Part shown: piece after piece, positions 1-48,709 of the stretch | Position numbering within the stretch: position 1 is the first letter of the stretch | Layout: every line of letters begins with the position of its first letter | From: Bacillota bacterium | GTDB taxonomy: Bacteria; Bacillota; DULZ01 | DNA: 64,000 nt | Direction: 5' to 3' | NCBI GenBank assembly: GCA_050951405.1 | Contig: JBMNIZ010000008.1 | Coordinates: 5,986 to 69,985, forward strand | The notes under the pieces: model-generated | What the model was told of the DNA's origin: nothing | Seen by the model: only the letters and a program-made list of their open reading frames with translations | Database searches by the model: none | Position numbers and translations under genes: made by a program

Positions 1-173
1 TTGCTTTTCCTATGATATAATTTCGATAAAAGGGCCGAAAATGCCTGCAATTACTGGCTTTTTAACACTTTTGCCAAAGAATTTTTGCCCACTGCTAACT
101 ATGGACTGTTAGTGAAAATGCAAACCAAGGATCGTCCAAGGTTTGCATTTTCTAAGACTTTGTCTACAGTCTG
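1..173 (-). mobile_element. Truncated second copy (terminal ~170 bp, cut by window edge) of the IS1182-family element that is complete at 46780..48489, in opposite orientation
   Basis: nt 1-110 are ~90% identical to the reverse complement of 46861-46960; nt 113-173 mirror the IS left end (CAGACTGTAGACAAAGTCTTA...GCAAACCTTGG) found at 46780-46840. Confidence 0.6.
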
Positions 174-224: not shown

Positions 225-2999
225 TTAATTTTTTTCCAGGGCCTCTTTGATCCTGGCCGGTGTGGCCGGCAGGGTATAGATGCGCACGCCCACCGCATCG
301 TAGATGGCGTTTAGAATCGCCGGCGTGATAGGCACAGTGGCCACCTCAGATATCCCCTTGGCTCCGTAAGGCCCGGTTGGTTCAGGGTCCTCCACGATCA
401 AGACCTGGTACTCGGGGGTCTCGTCTATTTTAGGCACCCCCAGCTGGCGAAAACTGCGGGCCTTGTGGATTCCCTTTTCCACCGGGTATTCCTCGGAAAG
501 AGCATAGCCCTGGCCCATGGAGCAGCTTCCCTGAATCTGTCCTTCGATTTTTTGGGGGTTGATAGACCTGCCCACATCATGGGCGGCGATTACCTTCAAG
601 AGTTTCACCTGGCCGCTGTCCGGGTCAACCTCAACGATGGCCACTTGGGTTGTATAAGCATAAGCCGGATAGTTCCGGTATTCCTCCTTGGGCACCTTGG
701 CTCTGGCCTCTTTATCCGCCAGGGCATAAGTCTTGGGAGCCACGTAGAAATAATCAGCCCGAATGCTGTCCCCTCGGGAAGATACCTGAGAGGCTAAATC
801 AGCCAAAGAACAAACCAGCTTCCCGTCTTTCCCCCTCACTGCCCCTTCCTGCAGTTCCAGCTGGGCTGGATCAAGCCTGTAAATTTCTCCCGCATAATTC
901 AACAGTTTTTCTTTGAAAATGCGGGCTGCATGATACATGGCATTGCCGCTGATGAGGGTCTGCCTTTCTCCTACGGCACCGCCGTGCCTGGGGGTCAAAG
1001 AAGTATCTCCGGTGATAATCTCTAAAGACTGGGCCGGCAGATTGAGGGTCTCGGCGGCAATTTGAGCCATTGTGGTCCTGATCCCCTGCCCCATATCCAC
1101 TGCCGACACTCTCACCTGTATGCCGCCATCAGGTTTCAGCTCCACTATGGCCCCGGCATCATCCACCTTGCCCTTGCCCGCTCCCACATTTTTAAAGCCG
1201 CTGGCTACCCCTATGCCCAACTTTTTCCTGCTCCCCCGGTACATTTCCTGAAAGCGGGGCAAATCCTTCTCCAGGGCTGCCTTAGCCTGCTTGATGGTTT
1301 CCTTAATGGCCACACTGGCCTTGAGGATCTCACCGGAAGCGGTTTCCGAACCCACATCCAGAGCATTCTTCAGGCGGATGTGGAAACGGTCCATCCCCAA
1401 TTTCAGGGCAATTTCATCCAAAAGGCTCTCGATGGCTACCGCCGCCTGATTAATGCCAAAACCCCGGAATGCACCCGAATTGGCGTTGTTGGTAAAAACC
1501 GCCCAGCCCTCTACCCTGATATTGGGTACCACATAAGGTCCGCAGGCAAAGATACAGGCCTGATCGATGACCCTGGGGCTCAGTCCCGAATAGGGTCCCG
1601 CATCGGACAACAATTTGGCGTCCACAAAAAGCAGCTTGCCTTCTTGATCCGCTCCCACCTGGTAGTCCATGATATAAGGATGGCGCTTGGCACTCATGCG
1701 CATGGACTCTTCCCTGCTCAGGGTGAGCTTCACCGGTTTGCCGGTACAGTATGCTGCCAAAGCCGTCATGTATTCTACCGGGCCGTCGATCTTCCCGCCA
1801 AAAGCGCCCCCCAAAGGCGTAACGATGATTCTGATCCGATCTTCCGGCAAATTCAAAACCGCTTGCAGCCTTTTCTTAATCTCGAAAGGGAACTGGGTGG
1901 GCCCGTATACTGTCAGCACGCCCTTTTCATCCAGAAAACTAACGCTGGATTCAGGCTCCAGGTAAGCATGCTCCACAAAGGGTGTTTCAAAATGACCTTC
2001 CACCACAATGTGTGCCCGGGCCTTGGCCTGCTCAACATCGCCCACCTGATGGACCAAATGCTTGCAAATGTTGCCTTCCGGGTACAATTTGGCGCTGGTC
2101 TCCTGCAAGGCTTCTTGGGGAGTAAAAACTCCAGGGAGAACCTGGTAGCGAACCTTGATCAAATCCACTGCCGCCTGGGCAATCTCCTCTGTTTCTGCCA
2201 CCACCAAAGCTACAGCGTCCCCCAAAAACCTGACTTTCTCCCCGCAGAGAACGGGCTGGTCCGGTTTAATAGTACCAATGCCGTTTTCCCCCGGGATATC
2301 CTTGGCGGTCAACACCGCCGTAACGCCCGGCAGGGCCTGGGCCTCGGTGATGTCTATATCCAATATTTGCGCATGAGGATGTTCCGCCCAGAGCACTTTG
2401 ACGTGTTGGAGGCCTTCCATGTCCAGATCGTCAGCATATTGCAGTTTTCCCGTTACCTTGGCTTCCCCGTCAATATCCGGCAGGGAAGCCCCCAAGCCGC
2501 CTCCTTTTTCCTCCGGATACTGCTTGCCCTCTGCCAGCCGGCCCGCCAGCTGAACCGCTTCGATTATTTTGGTGTAACCGGTGCAGCGGCAGATGTTGTT
2601 CTTTAAGCCCTGCATGATTTGCTCCTGGCTGGGCCTGGGATGTCTGTCCAGTAAAGCCTTTGCCGCCATAATCATCCCCGGGGTGCAAAAACCGCACTGT
2701 ACAGCGCCGGCAGCTAAAAAGGCCTCTTGAATAGGATGGAACTTGCCGTCTGCCGCCAGGCTCTCGATGGTGAGCACGCTTTTACCCTCCATCTGCTTCA
2801 ACGGCAGGAGACAGGACCGTTTGGCCTCCCCGTCCACAATCACCGTACAGGCCCCGCAATGACCGGTACTACAACCGTTTTTGGTCCCCGTAAGCTTCAA
2901 TTCTTCCCGCAGGAAGGAAAGCAGGCTTTGTTTGTCTTTCGCCTTCGCTTCCACAGGCTGCCCATTGACCGTAAACCTGATCACCCTCATGAACCTCAC
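225..2999 (-). CDS. Molybdopterin-dependent aldehyde oxidoreductase, Mop-type (two N-terminal 2Fe-2S domains fused to MoCo-binding domains, no FAD subunit)
   Basis: 924 aa; 2Fe-2S motifs GCSTGHCGACTV and QCGFCTPGMIMAAKAL, CRCTGY; C-terminus GVRIYTLPATP resembles D. gigas MOP GVRIYRLPAYP. Confidence 0.8.
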   Translation of the reverse strand: MRFMRVIRFTVNGQPVEAKAKDKQSLLSFLREELKLTGTKNGCSTGHCGACTVIVDGEAKRSCLLPLKQMEGKSVLTIESLAADGKFHPIQEAFLAAGAVQCGFCTPGMIMAAKALLDRHPRPSQEQIMQGLKNNICRCTGYTKIIEAVQLAGRLAEGKQYPEEKGGGLGASLPDIDGEAKVTGKLQYADDLDMEGLQHVKVLWAEHPHAQILDIDITEAQALPGVTAVLTAKDIPGENGIGTIKPDQPVLCGEKVRFLGDAVALVVAETEEIAQAAVDLIKVRYQVLPGVFTPQEALQETSAKLYPEGNICKHLVHQVGDVEQAKARAHIVVEGHFETPFVEHAYLEPESSVSFLDEKGVLTVYGPTQFPFEIKKRLQAVLNLPEDRIRIIVTPLGGAFGGKIDGPVEYMTALAAYCTGKPVKLTLSREESMRMSAKRHPYIMDYQVGADQEGKLLFVDAKLLSDAGPYSGLSPRVIDQACIFACGPYVVPNIRVEGWAVFTNNANSGAFRGFGINQAAVAIESLLDEIALKLGMDRFHIRLKNALDVGSETASGEILKASVAIKETIKQAKAALEKDLPRFQEMYRGSRKKLGIGVASGFKNVGAGKGKVDDAGAIVELKPDGGIQVRVSAVDMGQGIRTTMAQIAAETLNLPAQSLEIITGDTSLTPRHGGAVGERQTLISGNAMYHAARIFKEKLLNYAGEIYRLDPAQLELQEGAVRGKDGKLVCSLADLASQVSSRGDSIRADYFYVAPKTYALADKEARAKVPKEEYRNYPAYAYTTQVAIVEVDPDSGQVKLLKVIAAHDVGRSINPQKIEGQIQGSCSMGQGYALSEEYPVEKGIHKARSFRQLGVPKIDETPEYQVLIVEDPEPTGPYGAKGISEVATVPITPAILNAIYDAVGVRIYTLPATPARIKEALEKN

Positions 3000-3253: not shown

Positions 3254-4093
3254 TTAGTATTCATTGGGAAGCTCTTTCAGCTGGGCCAGGGTAAAAACCG
3301 GCCCATCAAGGCAGACATAGCGGCTCCCCAAGTTACAGCGGCCGCACTTGCCGATACCGCATTTCATCCGCATTTCCAGGGTAGTGACGATTTGTTCCGG
3401 TTGAAAACCCATCTTATCCAGGGATTGGAGCACAAATTTGATCATAATGGGAGGACCGCAGGTTAAAGCGATGGTATTGACCGGGCTGGGATTAAGTTTT
3501 TCCAAAAAAGCCGGCACAAAACCCACATGTCCCTGCCAGTTTTCGTCTCCTGCATCCACGGTCACACTCACCTGGGTATCCTTCACCTTAGGCCAGTTCT
3601 CAAAAAGGTCTTCTTTGAAGCAGAGATCCGCAGGAGAACGGGCCCCGTAAACAATATGCAGCTTGCCGAAATCCTCCCGGTGCTCCACACAATAGTTGAT
3701 CAGAGAACGTACCGGGGCCAATCCGATACCGCCGCCGATAAAGAGAACGTCTTTTCCTTGAAAAAGATCCAGGGGAAAACAATTACCGTAAGGCCCCCGG
3801 ATGCCCACTTCCTGGCCGACTACCGCTTCATGGAGGGCTTCCGTTAAAGTGCCGACCTTTTTGATGGCAAATTCCAGGTGATTTTCGCCCTGGGAAGTAA
3901 CGGAAAACATGGCTTCCCCTACCGGCAGCAAAGAGAGCATGCCCAGCTGTCCCGGCATGGGATGAAAGGGCTTACCCTCATCGGTAGTAATATGAAAGGT
4001 CTTTACATCGGGAGTTTCCTCCACAATTTTGACAATCTTTCCGATCTTCGGCAGTAAGGGATTAGCAGAAGCTTGACCATTTGCCTTAGTCAT
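3254..4093 (-). CDS. FAD/NAD(P)-binding ferredoxin-reductase-type oxidoreductase with C-terminal 2Fe-2S (AsrB / sulfhydrogenase gamma / FloxA-like)
   Basis: 279 aa; GGGIGLAP nucleotide-binding motif; C-terminal CGIGKCGRC cluster motif; overlaps next gene by 8 nt. Confidence 0.7.
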   Translation of the reverse strand: MTKANGQASANPLLPKIGKIVKIVEETPDVKTFHITTDEGKPFHPMPGQLGMLSLLPVGEAMFSVTSQGENHLEFAIKKVGTLTEALHEAVVGQEVGIRGPYGNCFPLDLFQGKDVLFIGGGIGLAPVRSLINYCVEHREDFGKLHIVYGARSPADLCFKEDLFENWPKVKDTQVSVTVDAGDENWQGHVGFVPAFLEKLNPSPVNTIALTCGPPIMIKFVLQSLDKMGFQPEQIVTTLEMRMKCGIGKCGRCNLGSRYVCLDGPVFTLAQLKELPNEY

Positions 4094-12679: not shown

Positions 12680-14005
12680 TTAATTTTCTGTCTGCATATG
12701 TTTGACCATATCCATTAAATCCTTGGAAAGATTGGACAGCCTGTTGACATATTCCGGTGCTCCAGATAGTTGGCGGCTATTTCCTCCACGGAAGCTGCCA
12801 GCTCCTGGGTGCTTCCTCCGGTTTGGGCGGCAATGTTTTCGATCTGCGCCATATGCTGAGCCACCTGGCGCCGCCGGCCGCCATTTGCTGGGTAGCATAA
12901 GAGACTTGTTGAATTTCCCGGCCACATCCTCAACGGATTTGATTATAGTTTCAAAAGCTCGCCCCGCCTCGGTCACCACTTGGATACCGCCGGCCGCTTC
13001 CTGGGTCCCCTGTTCCATGGATTCCACCGCTTTTTTCGTATCCTGTTGGATCTGCTGGATCATTTCCGCAATCTGCCCAGCCGCCGCTCCGGCCTGCTCA
13101 GCCAATTTTCTCACCTCTTCCGCCACCACGGCAAATCCCCGTCCTTGCTCTCCCGCCCTGGCGGCTTCAATGGCTGCATTCAAAGCCAGCAGATTGGTCT
13201 GCTCAGCAATGCTGGTGATGGTCTCCACGATTTGTCCAATTTCTATGGATCTTTCACCCAAAAGCCCCACCGTTTGAGAAGAACTGTGGACTGCCTTGCT
13301 GATCACCTTCATCTGCTCAATGGACTTGCTGATGGTCACCCCTCCCTGGGAAGCGATCTCCGCCGTCTCCCGCGAAAGATCGGATACGGCACGGGCGTTG
13401 GCCGCTATCTGCTGGATATCTTCAGACATGCGGCTGATAGTGGCAGAAATATCCTCGATACTGCCGGTCTGGTTTTCCATGCCCAGGGCTACCTGCTGAA
13501 TGGTCTGAGCGATTTGCTCAGTAGACTGGGATGATTGCTCCACATCAGCCTGCAAATTTCCGGCCATTTCCGCCACTTCCGCAGCCACCTCTCTGATTTT
13601 CAAAACAAAAGTCCTGAAGTTCTCCACCATCAAGTTAAAACCCCTGGCCAGGTCCAGCAGCTCATCATTGCTTTTACAGGCAGTTTGTACGGTCAAATCC
13701 CCTTTTTCCGCCCTTTTCATGGCCTTAACCACCTGTCCCACCGGGCCGAGAATGACTACGGACATAATGTAACCTACAAAAATAGAAAAAAGAGTGCCTC
13801 CCGTGCCGGCCACCAGAATATTTCTTTGAAAAATCCTGAAAGCCTGGTCAGCATTGCCGTGCCGGGCTGCCTCTTGCAAAAGAACGGCCACCGTGGGAAA
13901 AGTATAGCCGACGGTAGCTATCCAGATGACAACGGTCACTACTGAAAAGATGAGCACCATTTTCACTTTCAGGCTCAAGCGCATCTTTCCACCTCTTTTG
14001 TTCAT
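12680..14005 (-). CDS. Methyl-accepting chemotaxis protein; C-terminal signalling domain disrupted by apparent frameshifts
   Basis: N-terminal TM helices; highly conserved MCP core [35 protein letters not shown]. The C-terminal continuation ([29 protein letters not shown]) lies in another frame (12715..12933). Confidence 0.8.
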
Positions 14006-15075
14006 TTCTTCAGGTTGGTGATCCTTTCCACCGGACTTTCAATACTGGTAATCTTCACCCCAAAATTTTCACTGATCACCACCACTTCTCCTCTAGCGAT
14101 GGGAGTGCCGTTGACTAGAATATCCACCGGCTCCTCCGCCAGTTTCTCCAGCTCCACAATACTGCCGGGGGTAAAGTTCAGCACTTCTTTAATGGGCTTC
14201 TTTGTTTTGCCCAGGACAACCGACACTTTTAGTGGCACATCCAGGATCAAATCCAGATTCCGGGGTTTAATTCCTTCCGGCAATTCGGGCAATTCTTCTG
14301 CTGCCGGGGACAGCCCGGAATCAGGCCTGGTCTCAACCCCGGGGGAAAGCTCCTCGTTGGAAGCCGGTGCCGCCGACTGCTGGGGGACAGGCTCCTCTTC
14401 AATATTGTTCGTACCCAAAAGAAGGCCTGCTTCCTTTTTGGCCACCTCGATGGGAAGTACCTGCATAATTGAGCTGTCAAGCATAGTGCCTATTTCCATT
14501 TTAAAAGATACCACCACCAAGGCATTATCCACAGTCCAAGGGAAATCCATCTCTCCCTGAACATTGACTGCTTGAATTTTCGGGGTGGAAATCATCACTT
14601 TCGTATTAAACAGGCTGGACATGGAAGTAGCGGCAGAACCCATCATCTGGTTCATGGCTTCCGCCACGGCGCTGGAGTGCAGCTCGGTAATCTCCGCCGG
14701 TAAATTGGTGCCATCACCCCCCATCATCAAATCGGCAATGATCATGGCATCAGACACTTTCAGCACCAACAAGTTACTTCCCTGTAACCCCTCAATAAAG
14801 CCCACTTCAATGATCATCAGGGGCACTTTAAAACTGTCAATCAGCTCCTGGGGGGTCATAATCCGAACCCAGGGCGTGGTAATGCTCACCCTTTGATTTA
14901 AAAGCTGAGAAAGAGCAGTGGCAGCACTGCCCATAGAGATATTGCCTATTTCCCCGAGGGCGTCCTTTTCCATTTCATTCAGGTTAGCTGATGCCCCTCC
15001 GTCCGGTGCCAAATCGCCTCCATCCTGCCCTACCAAAAGAGCATCGATTTCTTCTTGTGACAAAAACCCGCTCAA
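14002..15075 (-). CDS. fliY: Flagellar motor switch phosphatase FliY (CheC-like N-terminal domains + FliN/SpoA C-terminal domain)
   Basis: 357 aa; C-terminus [46 protein letters not shown]. Confidence 0.9.
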
Positions 15076-16085
15076 CTCTCCCCACCTCTTTCCAGCATAC
15101 CGGTTACCTGTACAGCCAGTTTTTCCTGATAAATTCCCGGCTGCACCCGAAATTTAGGTTTATCTTCCACTGCCAGGATCATATCCTGTCCGATTTTGCT
15201 ATCCAGGGCGACTATATCTCCCACCTGGAGCCCCAAAAATTCCCTGATGGTTAACTCAGTCTCTCCTCCCAAGGCTGTCAGGGTTACCGGAGTTCTACCC
15301 AAAGCCTCCTCCACCAATTTATGGTAGTTTTCATAAGTGTCCTGAGTGGAGGAGAACCAATGACGAGCAGAGAGTTTGGAAATCACCGGTCCCAAAGTCA
15401 AAAAAGGCAAGCAGATGTTCATCATCCCTTGATGCCCGTTAATGTCGGTAGAAAAAGTAACTACGGCTACTATTTCATTGGGTGAAATAAGCCGATTCAG
15501 CTGGGGATTGGTTTCTATCCCCTGGATAGTTGTGGAAATCTGGTAAACATCACTCCAAACGTAATTCAGATTCTCCAACAGTCTCCCATATAAATGTTTC
15601 AGCACATTGGCCTCAATATCCGTTAATTCCCGCACCTTCTCCGGCATGGTGCCGGGCCCCCCGAAAAGTAGGTCGATCAAGGGAAAAACAAAATTGGCGT
15701 TGGTTTCCAGGACCGCCGAACCGGAGAGGGGCTCCATACTAAAAATGGCCATCAAGGTAGGGGTAGGAATGGATACGATAAAATCCTCAAAGGTCAATTG
15801 ATCCACGGAAAGAATCTTGATCTGAACATTGGTCCGCAAATAAACCGAAAGAGAATTGGCCACCAGCCGGGCGAAGTTTTCATGCATCAGGTAAATAGTC
15901 CGCATCTGATCCTTGGAAAACTTATTCGGCCGGCGAAAATCGTAAACCTTGGTTTTAACCTGTTCTGCCTCTCGGCGCATCTCCTCCGTATTCAGCTGCC
16001 CGGAAGTCAAAGCCTTTAAAAGCATATCAATTTCTGATTGAGACAATACTTCTTCCGCCACGAAGTCACCATCCTTCCCCGCCAT
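15072..16085 (-). CDS. fliM: Flagellar motor switch protein FliM
   Basis: 337 aa; N-terminal EVLSQSEIDMLLKAL CheY-binding motif. Confidence 0.9.
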   Translation of the reverse strand: MAGKDGDFVAEEVLSQSEIDMLLKALTSGQLNTEEMRREAEQVKTKVYDFRRPNKFSKDQMRTIYLMHENFARLVANSLSVYLRTNVQIKILSVDQLTFEDFIVSIPTPTLMAIFSMEPLSGSAVLETNANFVFPLIDLLFGGPGTMPEKVRELTDIEANVLKHLYGRLLENLNYVWSDVYQISTTIQGIETNPQLNRLISPNEIVAVVTFSTDINGHQGMMNICLPFLTLGPVISKLSARHWFSSTQDTYENYHKLVEEALGRTPVTLTALGGETELTIREFLGLQVGDIVALDSKIGQDMILAVEDKPKFRVQPGIYQEKLAVQVTGMLERGGES

Positions 16086-46756: not shown

Positions 46757-46779
46757 AGAGCCGGGAATTCCCCGGCTCT
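46757..46779. repeat. 23-bp palindrome AGAGCCGGGAATTCCCCGGCTCT (fliC terminator stem); left copy of the IS target-site duplication
   Basis: Identical 23-mer recurs at 48490..48512 on the other side of the IS, there followed by the terminator T-run. Confidence 0.7.
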
Positions 46780-48489
46780 CAGACTGTAGACAAAGTCTTA
46801 TGAAATGCAAACCTTGGCCGATCCTTGGTTTGCATTTTCATTTATACATTCCATAATTGCCGTGCGCAAAAAATCTTTGGCAAAAGTGTAAAAAAGCCAG
46901 TAATTGCAGGCATTTTCAGCCCTTTTAACGAAATTATATTATGGGAAAAACCAATACCGCCGGGGTGATGAAAATGCTTGCGAAAAAAGACCGTGAAGCT
47001 GTTAACCAAATGGAAATTGTTTGCATAGACAGCCTGGTTCCGGAAAACCATCTGCTTAGAGCCGTCCAGGAGAGTATTGACTTTCAGCTTCATCTATGAT
47101 GAAGTGAAAGACCTGTATTCAGAAAACCATGGCCGTCCCAGTGTAGATCCGGTTGTTCTAATTAAGCTGTTGATCCTGCAGGCACTCTATGGCATCCGTT
47201 CCATGCGGCAGACCATAGAAGAGGTAAAGGTAAACGTCGCTTACCGCTGGTTTCTGGGATATGGCTTGCAGGAGCAGATCCCTCACTTCTCTACCTTTGG
47301 CAAGAATTACGTGAGACGGTTTCAGGAAAGCGACATTTTTGAAAAAATCTTTGCGCGTGTTCTCGAAGGAAGCCATCAACTGCGGGTTTCTCAACACCAG
47401 CGCCATTTTCATTGATGCCACTCATGTCAAAGCCAGCGCCAATAAGAAGAAGTACATCAAAAAGATGGTCAGGCATCGTGTACATAAATACAAGCGTGAT
47501 TTGCTTTATGAAATTAACGAGGATCGGAAAGCCCATGGCAAGGAACCGTTTGCTGATGATGAGGACGGAGGCAATGATTCCGGAGATGAAGGAGGCACCC
47601 CGGCTGACAGCGGCAAGGAACGAGAAGTCATAGAAAGTACAACAGATCCGGAAAGCGGCATGTTCTACAAGAGTGAAAAAGAGAAATGCTTTGCCTATAC
47701 TGTAACCGTTGCCTGTGATCAGAACAACTTTGTCCTGGGATTAAAAGCAGCTCCCGGCAATGTTCACGACAGCCAGGTTTTCTCCGATGTCTTCCAGCCA
47801 GTCATTGAGACAGCACCCCGAAATCGAGTCTGTAGTTCCAGGATTCCGGATACAAAACCCCGGCCATCTGCCGGGAGATAGTCGAAGCCGGCAAAGACCC
47901 CATCATGCCCTACAAGCGCCCCATGACAAAGAAAGGCTATTTCAGAAAACATGAATTTGTTTATGACGAATACTACGACTGCTACATTTGCCCCAATAAC
48001 CAGATCTTAAAGTACAGCACCACCAACCGCAACGGTTACCGCGAATACAAAAGTGATCCCAAGGTCTGCATCGGCTGTGAGCATAGAAAGAAGTGTACAC
48101 AGAGCAAAAACTTTACCAAAGTGGTTACCCGTCATGTATGGCAGTCCTATACAGAAATAGCCGAAGACCTCAGGCATACCGAACGGGGAAAAGAACTTTA
48201 TCGTAAGCGCGGCGAGACAATTGAGCGTGTCTTTGCCGATGCGAAAGAAAAACACGGGATGCGTTTCACGCAGCTCCGGGGCTTGAGAAAAGTACAACAC
48301 TATCTCACGCTTCTTTTTGCATGCATGAATCTGAAAAAGCTGGCCATGTGGAAGCGGAAACAACGGACATTACCGCCCACAACCTCCCCGCAGCAGGGAG
48401 GTACTCTCTAACATTTCAGCTATTTTATGTTTAAAAGTAAAATGGCCTCTAGGTTTTGCTTCCTAAAGGCCATTTTTGTCTACAGTCTG
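46780..48489 (+). mobile_element. IS1182-family insertion sequence (1710 bp) inserted in the fliC / SLH-gene bidirectional terminator
   Basis: 15-bp terminal inverted repeats CAGACTGTAGACAAA; flanked by 23-bp direct duplication; internal DDE transposase with IS1182-type N-terminus (LVPENHLLRAVQESIDFSFIYDEV) and C-terminus (ERVFADAKEKHGMRFTQLRGLRKV). Confidence 0.75.
46941..48411 (+). pseudogene. IS1182-family transposase, interrupted by at least four frameshifts
   Basis: Continuous homology in alternating frames (46941-, 47077-, 47339-, 47905-); breaks near 47085, 47400, 47830 and 47890. Confidence 0.7.
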
Positions 48490-48512
48490 AGAGCCGGGAA
48501 TTCCCCGGCTCT
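48490..48512. repeat. Right copy of 23-bp palindromic target-site duplication, followed by the T-run of the original terminator
   Basis: AGAGCCGGGAATTCCCCGGCTCT + TTTTTCTTTTC. Confidence 0.7.
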
Positions 48513-48709
48513 TTTTCTTTTCTCTTTTTTCTCCTTTCTCCCGTCATTGTATTTTTATTGTCATAATGCTCCTGGAAGCCTAAACTATGGCGATGGATGG
48601 AAGCTTCCAATCACCGGTTTTTTCACAAAAATCACAACACCGCTCACATCCCGCCTCATTTCCCTTCATGGAAATGATCCTGGATGGACGGAGAAAGATT
48701 CCTTTTTGC

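Follow-up and report, generated by a model that had tools for sequence, protein, structure and literature searches.

A new IS1182-family insertion sequence of a Bacillota bacterium that integrates at terminator hairpins and duplicates the whole stem-loop

The subject of this study is an insertion sequence (IS) in a 64,000-nucleotide stretch of DNA, here called the window, from a Bacillota bacterium of the DULZ01 lineage (assembly GCA_050951405.1, contig JBMNIZ010000008.1, positions 5,986 to 69,985 of the forward strand). The element lies in the terminator of the fliC gene, at window positions 46780-48489, and its sequence places it in the IS1182 family as a new, previously unnamed member. It has duplicated an entire hairpin at each of two sites, termini of its type lie almost universally beside hairpins, and the targets share no sequence beyond a pyrimidine followed by T at the junction. 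Very probably, the transposase selects its targets by DNA structure, integrating at the feet of stem-loops and copying the whole stem-loop in the process.

The duplication can be read most directly at fliC. The 23-nt sequence AGAGCCGGGAATTCCCCGGCTCT stands on both sides of the element as direct copies that are identical at 23/23 positions. The left copy (46757-46779) is the stem-loop of the fliC terminator parted from its T-run, and the right copy (48490-48512), which scored as terminator-like, continues directly into TTTTTCTTTT and has retained the original T-run at 48513-48522. As a palindrome the repeat is imperfect, its 9-bp stem enclosing the asymmetric loop AATTC. When each flank copy is joined to its IS terminus (42 nt per arm), the two arms are just 93% complementary as inverted repeats (IRs), and this, together with the asymmetric loop, indicates that both flanks were copied in direct orientation from a single target and do not extend the arms of the IS. 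The SLH-protein gene adjoining the element was found on seven contigs, one of which (locus L132; GCA_001577815.1, LSQX01178548.1) is without the IS. From the fliC stop codon, this empty site reads through GCAAAA-AGAGCCGGGAATTCCCCGGCTCT-TTTTCTTTT and holds one hairpin. Aligned to the window it gives two blocks, each 99.9% identical, which overlap in L132 by exactly 23 nt. The single hairpin and the overlap of the blocks mean that the insertion duplicated the stem-loop, and whole-hairpin target duplication at fliC is thus proven by an empty-site allele, which bears out an earlier reading of the window (the first-pass annotation) that had placed the insertion in the fliC terminator with a 23-nt palindromic duplication.

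The empty site also shows what the element had entered. Its structure has a stem of 13 pairs (7 G-C) and a 5-nt loop followed by TTTTTCTTTT; the stem starts 9 nt beyond the fliC stop codon, and in the scan the hairpin was terminator-like with a folding energy of -26.6 kcal/mol (z = -5.5). The stem, the T-run and the proximity of the stop codon predict that the target is an intrinsic (Rho-independent) terminator. The duplication comprises the inner 9 of the 13 possible pairs and the loop. The first-pass statement that the whole stem had been duplicated therefore holds for the stem-loop as a unit, with 9/13 pairs copied, but not for the four basal A:T pairs, which lie outside the duplication. 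A- and T-runs on both sides of the fliC hairpin make it plausible that this terminator also serves the SLH gene, although it lies about 200 nt past the stop codon of that gene.

A second insertion is found at the start of the window. Positions 1-173 hold, on the minus strand, the left end of a second IS copy, identical at 173/173 positions to the subtype of the element seen at locus L129. The 16-nt terminus of the IS occurs three times in the window against an expectation of zero (none in 100 shuffles), and its third occurrence (158-173, minus strand) lies directly against the hairpin AAAGGTTGC-CTTGCA-GCAACCTTT at 174-197. This hairpin lies just downstream of a 924-codon open reading frame (ORF; 225-2999, minus strand), an aldehyde/xanthine-type oxidoreductase gene, whose ortholog at locus L121 (called with 921 aa) carries molybdopterin oxidoreductase domains, in agreement with its first-pass designation as a Mop gene. 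The same genomic region is present on a JGI metagenome contig (3300053716 Ga0534105_01100; loci L120 and L121), with the IS at both sites and an intact 505-aa gene in each copy. At L121 the IS is complete (13921-15620), and AAAGGTTGCTGCAAGGCAACCTTT stands on both sides of it as a 24-nt duplication of the oxidoreductase terminator hairpin, the right copy leading into TTTTGCC. The window hairpin at 174-197 (AAAGGTTGCCTTGCAGCAACCTTT) is one copy of this duplication, and the other lies past the window edge. The copy at 1-173, earlier called truncated, is therefore only cut by the window edge, whereas the proposal of a second, independent copy beside another terminator hairpin is confirmed, here with a duplication of the whole 24-nt hairpin. 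One genome thus holds two independent insertions, each of which duplicated a different whole stem-loop. SASP, SLH and flagellar genes are also present on the L120/L121 contigs, as would fit a Bacillota host that forms spores.

The generality of hairpin adjacency was examined with a pattern-only scan for the bare 16-mer in one genome per species (596 Gb), in which the window's own genome was absent. The pattern is blind to flanks, so the flank sample is unbiased in that respect. The scan returned at least 119 loci, almost all in Bacillota, with hosts that include Lachnospiraceae, Oscillospiraceae, Planococcus, Sporosarcina, Enterococcus, Listeria, Tetragenococcus, Macrococcus and Selenomonadales. 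The frequencies and means that follow, here and in later paragraphs, were taken among the matches listed, with termini counted where at least 45 nt of outside flank was available (n = 129) and a terminus called hairpin-adjacent where the 3' arm of a stem-loop ended no more than 3 nt from it. By this measure 112/129 termini (87%) are hairpin-adjacent, 88 of them with no gap, and the same test applied at control offsets of 10-300 nt outward gave 13-22%. Over the last 35 nt of flank, folding energy averages -13.8 kcal/mol, compared with about -4.5 kcal/mol, and the flank hairpins have a mean stem of 10 bp and a mean loop of 4.5 nt. The census which the first-pass annotation had proposed as a check on hairpin-directed targeting thus supports it.

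The flanks have further properties expected of terminators. An ORF of at least 100 codons, aimed at the IS, ends within 150 nt at 78/118 termini (66%), as against 16% for random positions, and an A-run lies over the 5' foot (a T-run on the other strand) in 57/89 flanks with a perfect stem (64%). Sequence information is confined to position -1 (T, 85%) and position -2 (C or T, 91%); the paired positions beyond -2 carry essentially none. The 16-nt end CAGACTGTAGACAAAR is common to elements in many Bacillota families, whose transposases are about 35-60% identical to that of the window, and about 45 termini with more than 1 kb of interior lack a transposase homologue (MITE-like, from miniature inverted-repeat transposable element, or solo ends). 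A 34-nt IS-specific pattern used in a metagenome scan added four further sites (L127-L130), all hairpin-adjacent. At two of these, in two samples, the same hairpin AACCGGGAC-TATT-GTCCCGGTT occurs in opposite orientations (L128 ~3640-3662; L129 ~1716-1740) and is joined in both to the IS left end; it may be one hot spot struck in both orientations, as with the IS1272 targets described below.

Elements with both ends available show the same outcome as the two window sites. Exact whole-hairpin duplications were found at L025 (27 nt), L033 (28 nt), L034 (23 nt), L038 (29 nt), L046 (21 nt) and L073 (23 nt), and near-exact ones at L002, L044, L069 and L072, some of them longer than 21-29 nt. Besides the window IS, at least 10 two-ended elements therefore have an exact or near-exact whole-hairpin duplication. 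Short non-palindromic duplications, named in advance as the pattern that would speak against hairpin targeting, were looked for, and none was found among the two-ended elements in the matches listed. Several of the elements with whole-hairpin duplications are non-autonomous, being derivatives 160-920 bp long with the same termini and hairpin-duplication flanks (L038 875-1253; L046 3835-4265; L073 3591-4023; L002 632-793; L044 6659-6830; L069 6564-7057; L072 3699-4620), and, having no transposase, are classed from their sequence as MITE-like.

The assignment of the element to the IS1182 family rests on its transposase and its layout. Members of this family are about 1.3-1.95 kb in length, with a single transposase ORF and short terminal inverted repeats. 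The complete fliC-site element is on the plus strand, measures 1710 bp in the window assembly and 1700 bp at L120, and has one 505-aa ORF and 16-nt inverted repeats (15/16), in keeping with that description. The left terminal inverted repeat, CAGACTGTAGACAAAG, is at 46780-46795 on the plus strand and matches the 16-mer, which ISEfa7 shares; the right one, CAGACTGTAGACAAAA, is at 48474-48489 on the minus strand and differs from the left by one base, A. The transposase coding region (46941-48466, plus strand) carries five single-base insertions in the window and is intact, with 505 aa, in the same-site copy at L120. This intact copy (L120:11363-12880) scored 448 bits against the NCBIfam model NF033551, "IS1182 family transposase" (cutoff 270; model positions 7-488 of 488), and remained below the respective cutoffs of the IS5, ISNCY, IS1634 and IS982 family models. 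Pfam matches on the window ORF pieces (DUF772, 2e-24; DDE_Tnp_1, 8e-06; DDE_Tnp_1_6, 2e-29) agree with the DUF772 plus DDE architecture annotated at L120 and L121 and, as profile matches, identify the predicted transposase as of the DDE type. The nearest relatives among 72,556 plasmids are below 60% identity, and the annotated ones are IS1182 / ISEfa7-type transposases (50-57%). The family assignment of the first-pass annotation is hence well supported by both the model score and the domains.

Strong hairpins also occur just inside the ends of the element. The left subterminal hairpin (46803-46837, plus strand), identified by folding and followed by UUUUCAUUU, is terminator-like, faces inward and lies ahead of the transposase gene; the stretch 46757-46850, which also takes in the left flank copy, folds at -40.7 kcal/mol (z = -7.0). 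The right subterminal hairpin (48439-48476), identified by inverted-repeat search and folding, has U-runs on both strands, and is predicted to end the transposase transcript; it would also stop inward read-through. Subterminal structure is enriched across the scanned loci (-15.3 compared with about -8 kcal/mol). Promoter-like hexamer pairs were seen at 46829-46857 and 46913-46942, in the interval that leads from the left subterminal hairpin to the start of the transposase (46941), and the 2.2-kb region has six promoter-like sites against 2.3 expected.

The proposed mechanism is one in which integration would take place at the feet of short GC-rich stem-loops, in practice the intrinsic terminators at gene 3' ends. 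Each of the two transposon 3' ends would be joined at a 5' foot of the palindrome, one on either strand, and repair of the two single-stranded gaps would copy the stem-loop (21-29 nt in the exact cases) to both sides. We infer that the substrate is an extruded cruciform or a pair of hairpins, cut with an ordinary short IS5-like stagger across the base: the target reduced to A(R)...(Y)T, the IS5-type relation and the symmetric cuts together suggest such a stagger, and since the base of a looped-out structure is what is spanned, the linear duplication would include the entire palindrome. On insertion the left hairpin copy loses its T-run. The subterminal hairpins with their U-runs could restore upstream termination and could also shield the transposase from read-through; by replacing the lost terminator, they would make terminators a low-cost landing site.

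A different substrate is conceivable, namely a hairpin in transiently single-stranded DNA (on the lagging-strand template or, at a terminating polymerase, on the non-template strand), with the second joining at the symmetric position. Extruding stems of 9-12 bp as a cruciform is costly in vivo, the IS200/IS605 elements are known to recognise hairpins in the single-stranded DNA of the replication fork, and most of the targets here are, by prediction, active terminators, as this explanation expects. However, the duplication is symmetric and both strands are cut at equivalent 5' feet, as expected of a two-fold four-way structure, and the enzyme is an IS5-related DDE transposase and not an HUH enzyme. 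A single-stranded target is therefore considered rather unlikely, though by no means negligible.

It may also be asked whether the association with hairpins reflects targeting at all, as random insertion followed by purifying selection could spare the landings in terminators and so give survivorship in place of site choice. Intergenic 3' regions are tolerant of insertion, 66% of the listed termini lie just past a gene end, and a large survey finds terminator-like sequences beside many IS families (bioRxiv 10.1101/2025.07.22.666184). Nevertheless, nucleotide-exact junctions are beyond what selection can produce (88/129 listed termini touch the last stem base), the hairpin signal is mostly lost at an offset of 10 nt, and neutral intergenic DNA away from hairpins goes unused. 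Furthermore, the duplication equals the stem-loop in 12 elements, which is likewise out of the reach of selection, and survivorship is accordingly a very improbable account. Finally, the idea that the palindromes are part of the IS itself, in the form of extended inverted repeats or of terminators that it carries, and that no duplication is made, has next to no chance of being correct: a palindromic direct repeat is nearly indistinguishable from such an arm, as the near-complementary 42-nt arms at fliC illustrate, but the empty site at L132 retains one hairpin, which refutes it, the asymmetric loop marks the copies as direct, and the hairpin sequence varies from site to site with an invariant 16-nt terminus.

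Several observations weigh against site selection by structure with whole-hairpin duplication, or limit it. One group consists of about seven two-ended elements with unlike hairpins on their two sides and no duplication (L020 3245-3295; L064 4551-4610; L096 7405-7485; L026; L051; L104; L129). For L064 a relative, L139, has only the left hairpin; the homology stops exactly at the element boundary, beyond which L139 has a different downstream gene. A blunt insertion between two pre-existing tandem hairpins at L064 was considered and rejected, as L139 has one hairpin and then unrelated DNA. The comparison points to a rearrangement at the element as the probable origin of the unlike flanks of L064, either by recombination between copies or by intramolecular transposition, and by either route each junction would still have formed at a hairpin foot. 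The full-length cases with unlike flanks in short-read metagenome-assembled genomes (MAGs) could be assembly chimeras.

A second group comprises four IR-loop-IR palindromes of 42-46 bp, made of two 16-nt ends and a 10-14-nt spacer, with a hairpin on one side only (L009 2010-2055; L013 6844-6885; L101 6100-6141; L105 86-131). At L009, L013 and L101 the palindrome lies between the hairpin and a T-rich stretch, and at L105 the hairpin lies between the palindrome and a T-run; no second hairpin copy was found at any of the four. For L009 and L101, an interpretation as the left ends of full-length elements, on the pattern of ISEfa7, was discarded, with no transposase within 2-6 kb of either. Both the unlike-hairpin elements and the one-sided palindromes need secondary rearrangements or another mode of insertion. 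In addition, 17 of the termini (13%) have no detectable hairpin, and a copy of ISEfa7 (L140) has no flanking hairpin at the examined end. Chance 16-mers probably account for some of the hairpin-less matches (e.g., those in a gammaproteobacterium and an Eisenbacteria MAG); a hand estimate at uniform composition gives several hundred of them in 596 Gb.

Other reservations concern the geometry. Further pairs are possible outside the duplication, four A:T at fliC and 0-2 elsewhere; a cut inside the outermost pair fits weak basal A:T pairs that were not extruded, and makes "foot of the stem" an approximate term. As A is its first base and T its last, the duplication could formally shrink to 21 nt, were the T/A assigned to the IS. 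Moreover, the cruciform or hairpin substrate is a prediction from the junction geometry.

Targeting of hairpins and terminators is already published for the IS1182 family (ISCbo5 and IS1272), so the phenomenon itself is not new. For ISCbo5, an IS1182-family element of Clostridium botulinum group III and C. novyi-NT, all insertion sites but one are hairpins at gene ends, which are interpreted as terminators, and the element is described as "surrounded" by the hairpin (Skarin et al., 2011; PMC3098183). ISCbo5 thus resembles the element studied here as a multi-copy IS1182-family element in gene-end terminator hairpins. It differs in being another element (the "ISbma2-like" IS of C. novyi-NT), with low-GC clostridial hosts, the comparison being made by description; moreover, the text consulted has hairpins on the sides of the IS with no record of an exact whole-hairpin duplication backed by an empty site (PMC3098183). 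Literature searches with the 16-nt terminus string gave no related paper, and searches for ISBma2 with hairpin-type terms gave no paper naming ISBma2.

For IS1272/TnSha1 of staphylococci, stem-loops and intrinsic terminators serve as targets whatever their primary sequence, the same hairpin is struck repeatedly and in both orientations, and in the cases described the element is reported to delete or replace the stem-loop with no target duplication (Furi et al., 2016, PMC4923244; Wan et al., 2017, PMC5678879). The 16-bp terminal inverted repeats and the choice of hairpins and terminators are common to both elements. In contrast to IS1272, the window IS keeps and duplicates the stem-loop: a single hairpin stands at the empty site and two intact ones at the occupied site, the second site is alike, and stem-loop replacement of the IS1272 type was not seen at either. 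This outcome corresponds to pathway b, a hypothetical route in Figure 13 of PMC5678879, in which the 3' ends are joined at the 5' feet and the whole stem-loop is duplicated, and not to joining at the 3' foot. As quoted in PMC4923244 and PMC5678879, Siguier et al. (2015) state that some IS1182 members target palindromes and that the direct repeats are variable and sometimes very long. The same trait is seen here, with palindromic direct repeats of 23 and 24 nt at the two sites and 21-29 nt at other loci. Direct repeats in the IS1182 family range from 0 to 60 bp.

ISEfa7 of Enterococcus faecium has a left terminus identical to CAGACTGTAGACAAAG, whereas its transposase is just 50% identical to that of the window IS over 91% of its length. 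The left end of its copy at L140 410-454 (E. faecium plasmid NZ_AP028416.1) consists of the left inverted repeat, a short hairpin and an inverted IR-like copy, which together form a 45-bp palindrome, and then TTTTC. No match to the ISEfa7 right end was found within the 2.3-kb L140 stretch, which enters an IS66-family gene. Elements of the IS5 family with short palindromic duplications include IS5 ("YTAR") and the ISL2 group ("ANT"). The window IS resembles this family in its related DDE transposase (sub-threshold model matches) and in a duplication that begins A(R) and ends (Y)T, which is what a 2-4-bp stagger would give with a hairpin looped out between the cuts. It differs in that its type of duplication is 21-29 nt long in exact cases (longer in near-exact ones) and covers a whole stem-loop, with no fixed target sequence.

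Other mobile elements seek palindromes or terminators, including IS1397/ISKpn1 of the IS3 family (loops of repetitive extragenic palindromes, REP, and of bacterial interspersed mosaic elements, BIME), IS110-family elements in REP sequences, IS200/IS605 and class C group II introns, which lie downstream of terminator stem-loops. They have in common with the window IS the use of extragenic palindromes or terminators as safe landing sites. However, they employ other enzymes (DEDD, HUH, reverse transcriptase/ribozyme or IS3-type DDE), and recognition is sequence-guided, RNA-guided or by way of single-stranded DNA. To our knowledge, none of them duplicates a whole arbitrary stem-loop.

The state of the transposase gene in the window requires separate consideration. 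The reading frame switches in the order 0>1>2>0>1 (four frameshifts) and a fifth frameshift lies near the C-terminus, so that the earlier count of at least four in the sequence as it stands is upheld; the single-base insertions that disrupt the gene are at 47085, 47368, 47809, 47841 and 48396. Likewise, the identity of about 90% reported for the two window copies is close to that measured over the visible 173 nt (154 matches, 18 mismatches and 3 gap columns; 93% by column). From these observations the element had been called old or decaying. A genuinely decayed pseudogene at fliC, with real frameshifts, would have in its favour the five +1 insertions and the difference of about 10% between the copies.

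Comparison with the same site at L120 argues otherwise. The flanks of the two are 99.99% identical (2 differences in about 19.5 kb), yet inside the IS identity is just 94%, with 99 differences. Over its first ~800 columns, on the left, the window copy is 97-99% identical to the L120 subtype; the middle is intermediate, and in columns 1200-1600 it matches the L129 subtype at 199/200 positions per 200-column block. These two subtypes share 88% identity, and each is intact elsewhere (505 and 497 aa, respectively). The window copy has nine private extra bases that occur in neither subtype (46846-7, 46957-8, 47085, 47368, 47809, 47841 and 48396), and each lies at a subtype-variable site with both alleles in tandem, e.g., GACTTT-AGC and GATTTC-AGC have given GACTTTCAGC. 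The indels in the window IS are insertions only. Tandem alleles at subtype-variable sites, with insertions and no deletions, indicate a consensus of a mixture, unlike mutation or recombination, and the frameshifts are thus most likely an artefact of assembly or polishing, in which two mixed repeat variants were merged. The difference of about 10% between the window copies would then stem from two co-resident subtypes and not from age. With the tandem alleles and the subtype mosaic, true decay of the transposase was ruled out as the best reading, and it is improbable. At the oxidoreductase site the JGI contig (L121) has the L120 subtype and the window the L129 subtype, with virtually identical flanks; as the JGI contig has the L120 subtype at both sites, the IS interiors in these assemblies are unreliable and the junctions reliable.

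As a matter of annotation the element is an ordinary though tidy case. A practical lesson is that metagenome-derived assemblies can blend subtypes inside a multi-copy IS, where apparent frameshifts should not be read as decay. What is new is the element itself, the proof of whole-hairpin duplication from an occupied and an empty site, the broad census and the contrast with the outcome for IS1272. The proof is unusually complete in that it draws on an occupied and an empty allele and on two sites of a single genome, and the census extends the rule to more than 100 Bacillota termini with almost no target sequence information. Since the window IS duplicates the hairpin where IS1272 deletes it, the strand-transfer polarity model of PMC5678879 becomes directly testable. 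It is possible, if somewhat short of probable, that a Bacillota-wide IS1182 clade with an invariant 16-nt end and MITE-like derivatives integrates purely by reading structure, with an IS5-like short stagger across the base of an extruded cruciform and only Y-T needed at the foot, and that the polarity of joining (5' feet here, 3' feet in IS1272) decides between terminator duplication and deletion. If this structure-read rule is true, no DDE transposase before these would have been shown to target four-way or hairpin DNA in a generic way, and the elements could act as a natural "terminator safe-harbour" insertion system that carries its own replacement terminators.

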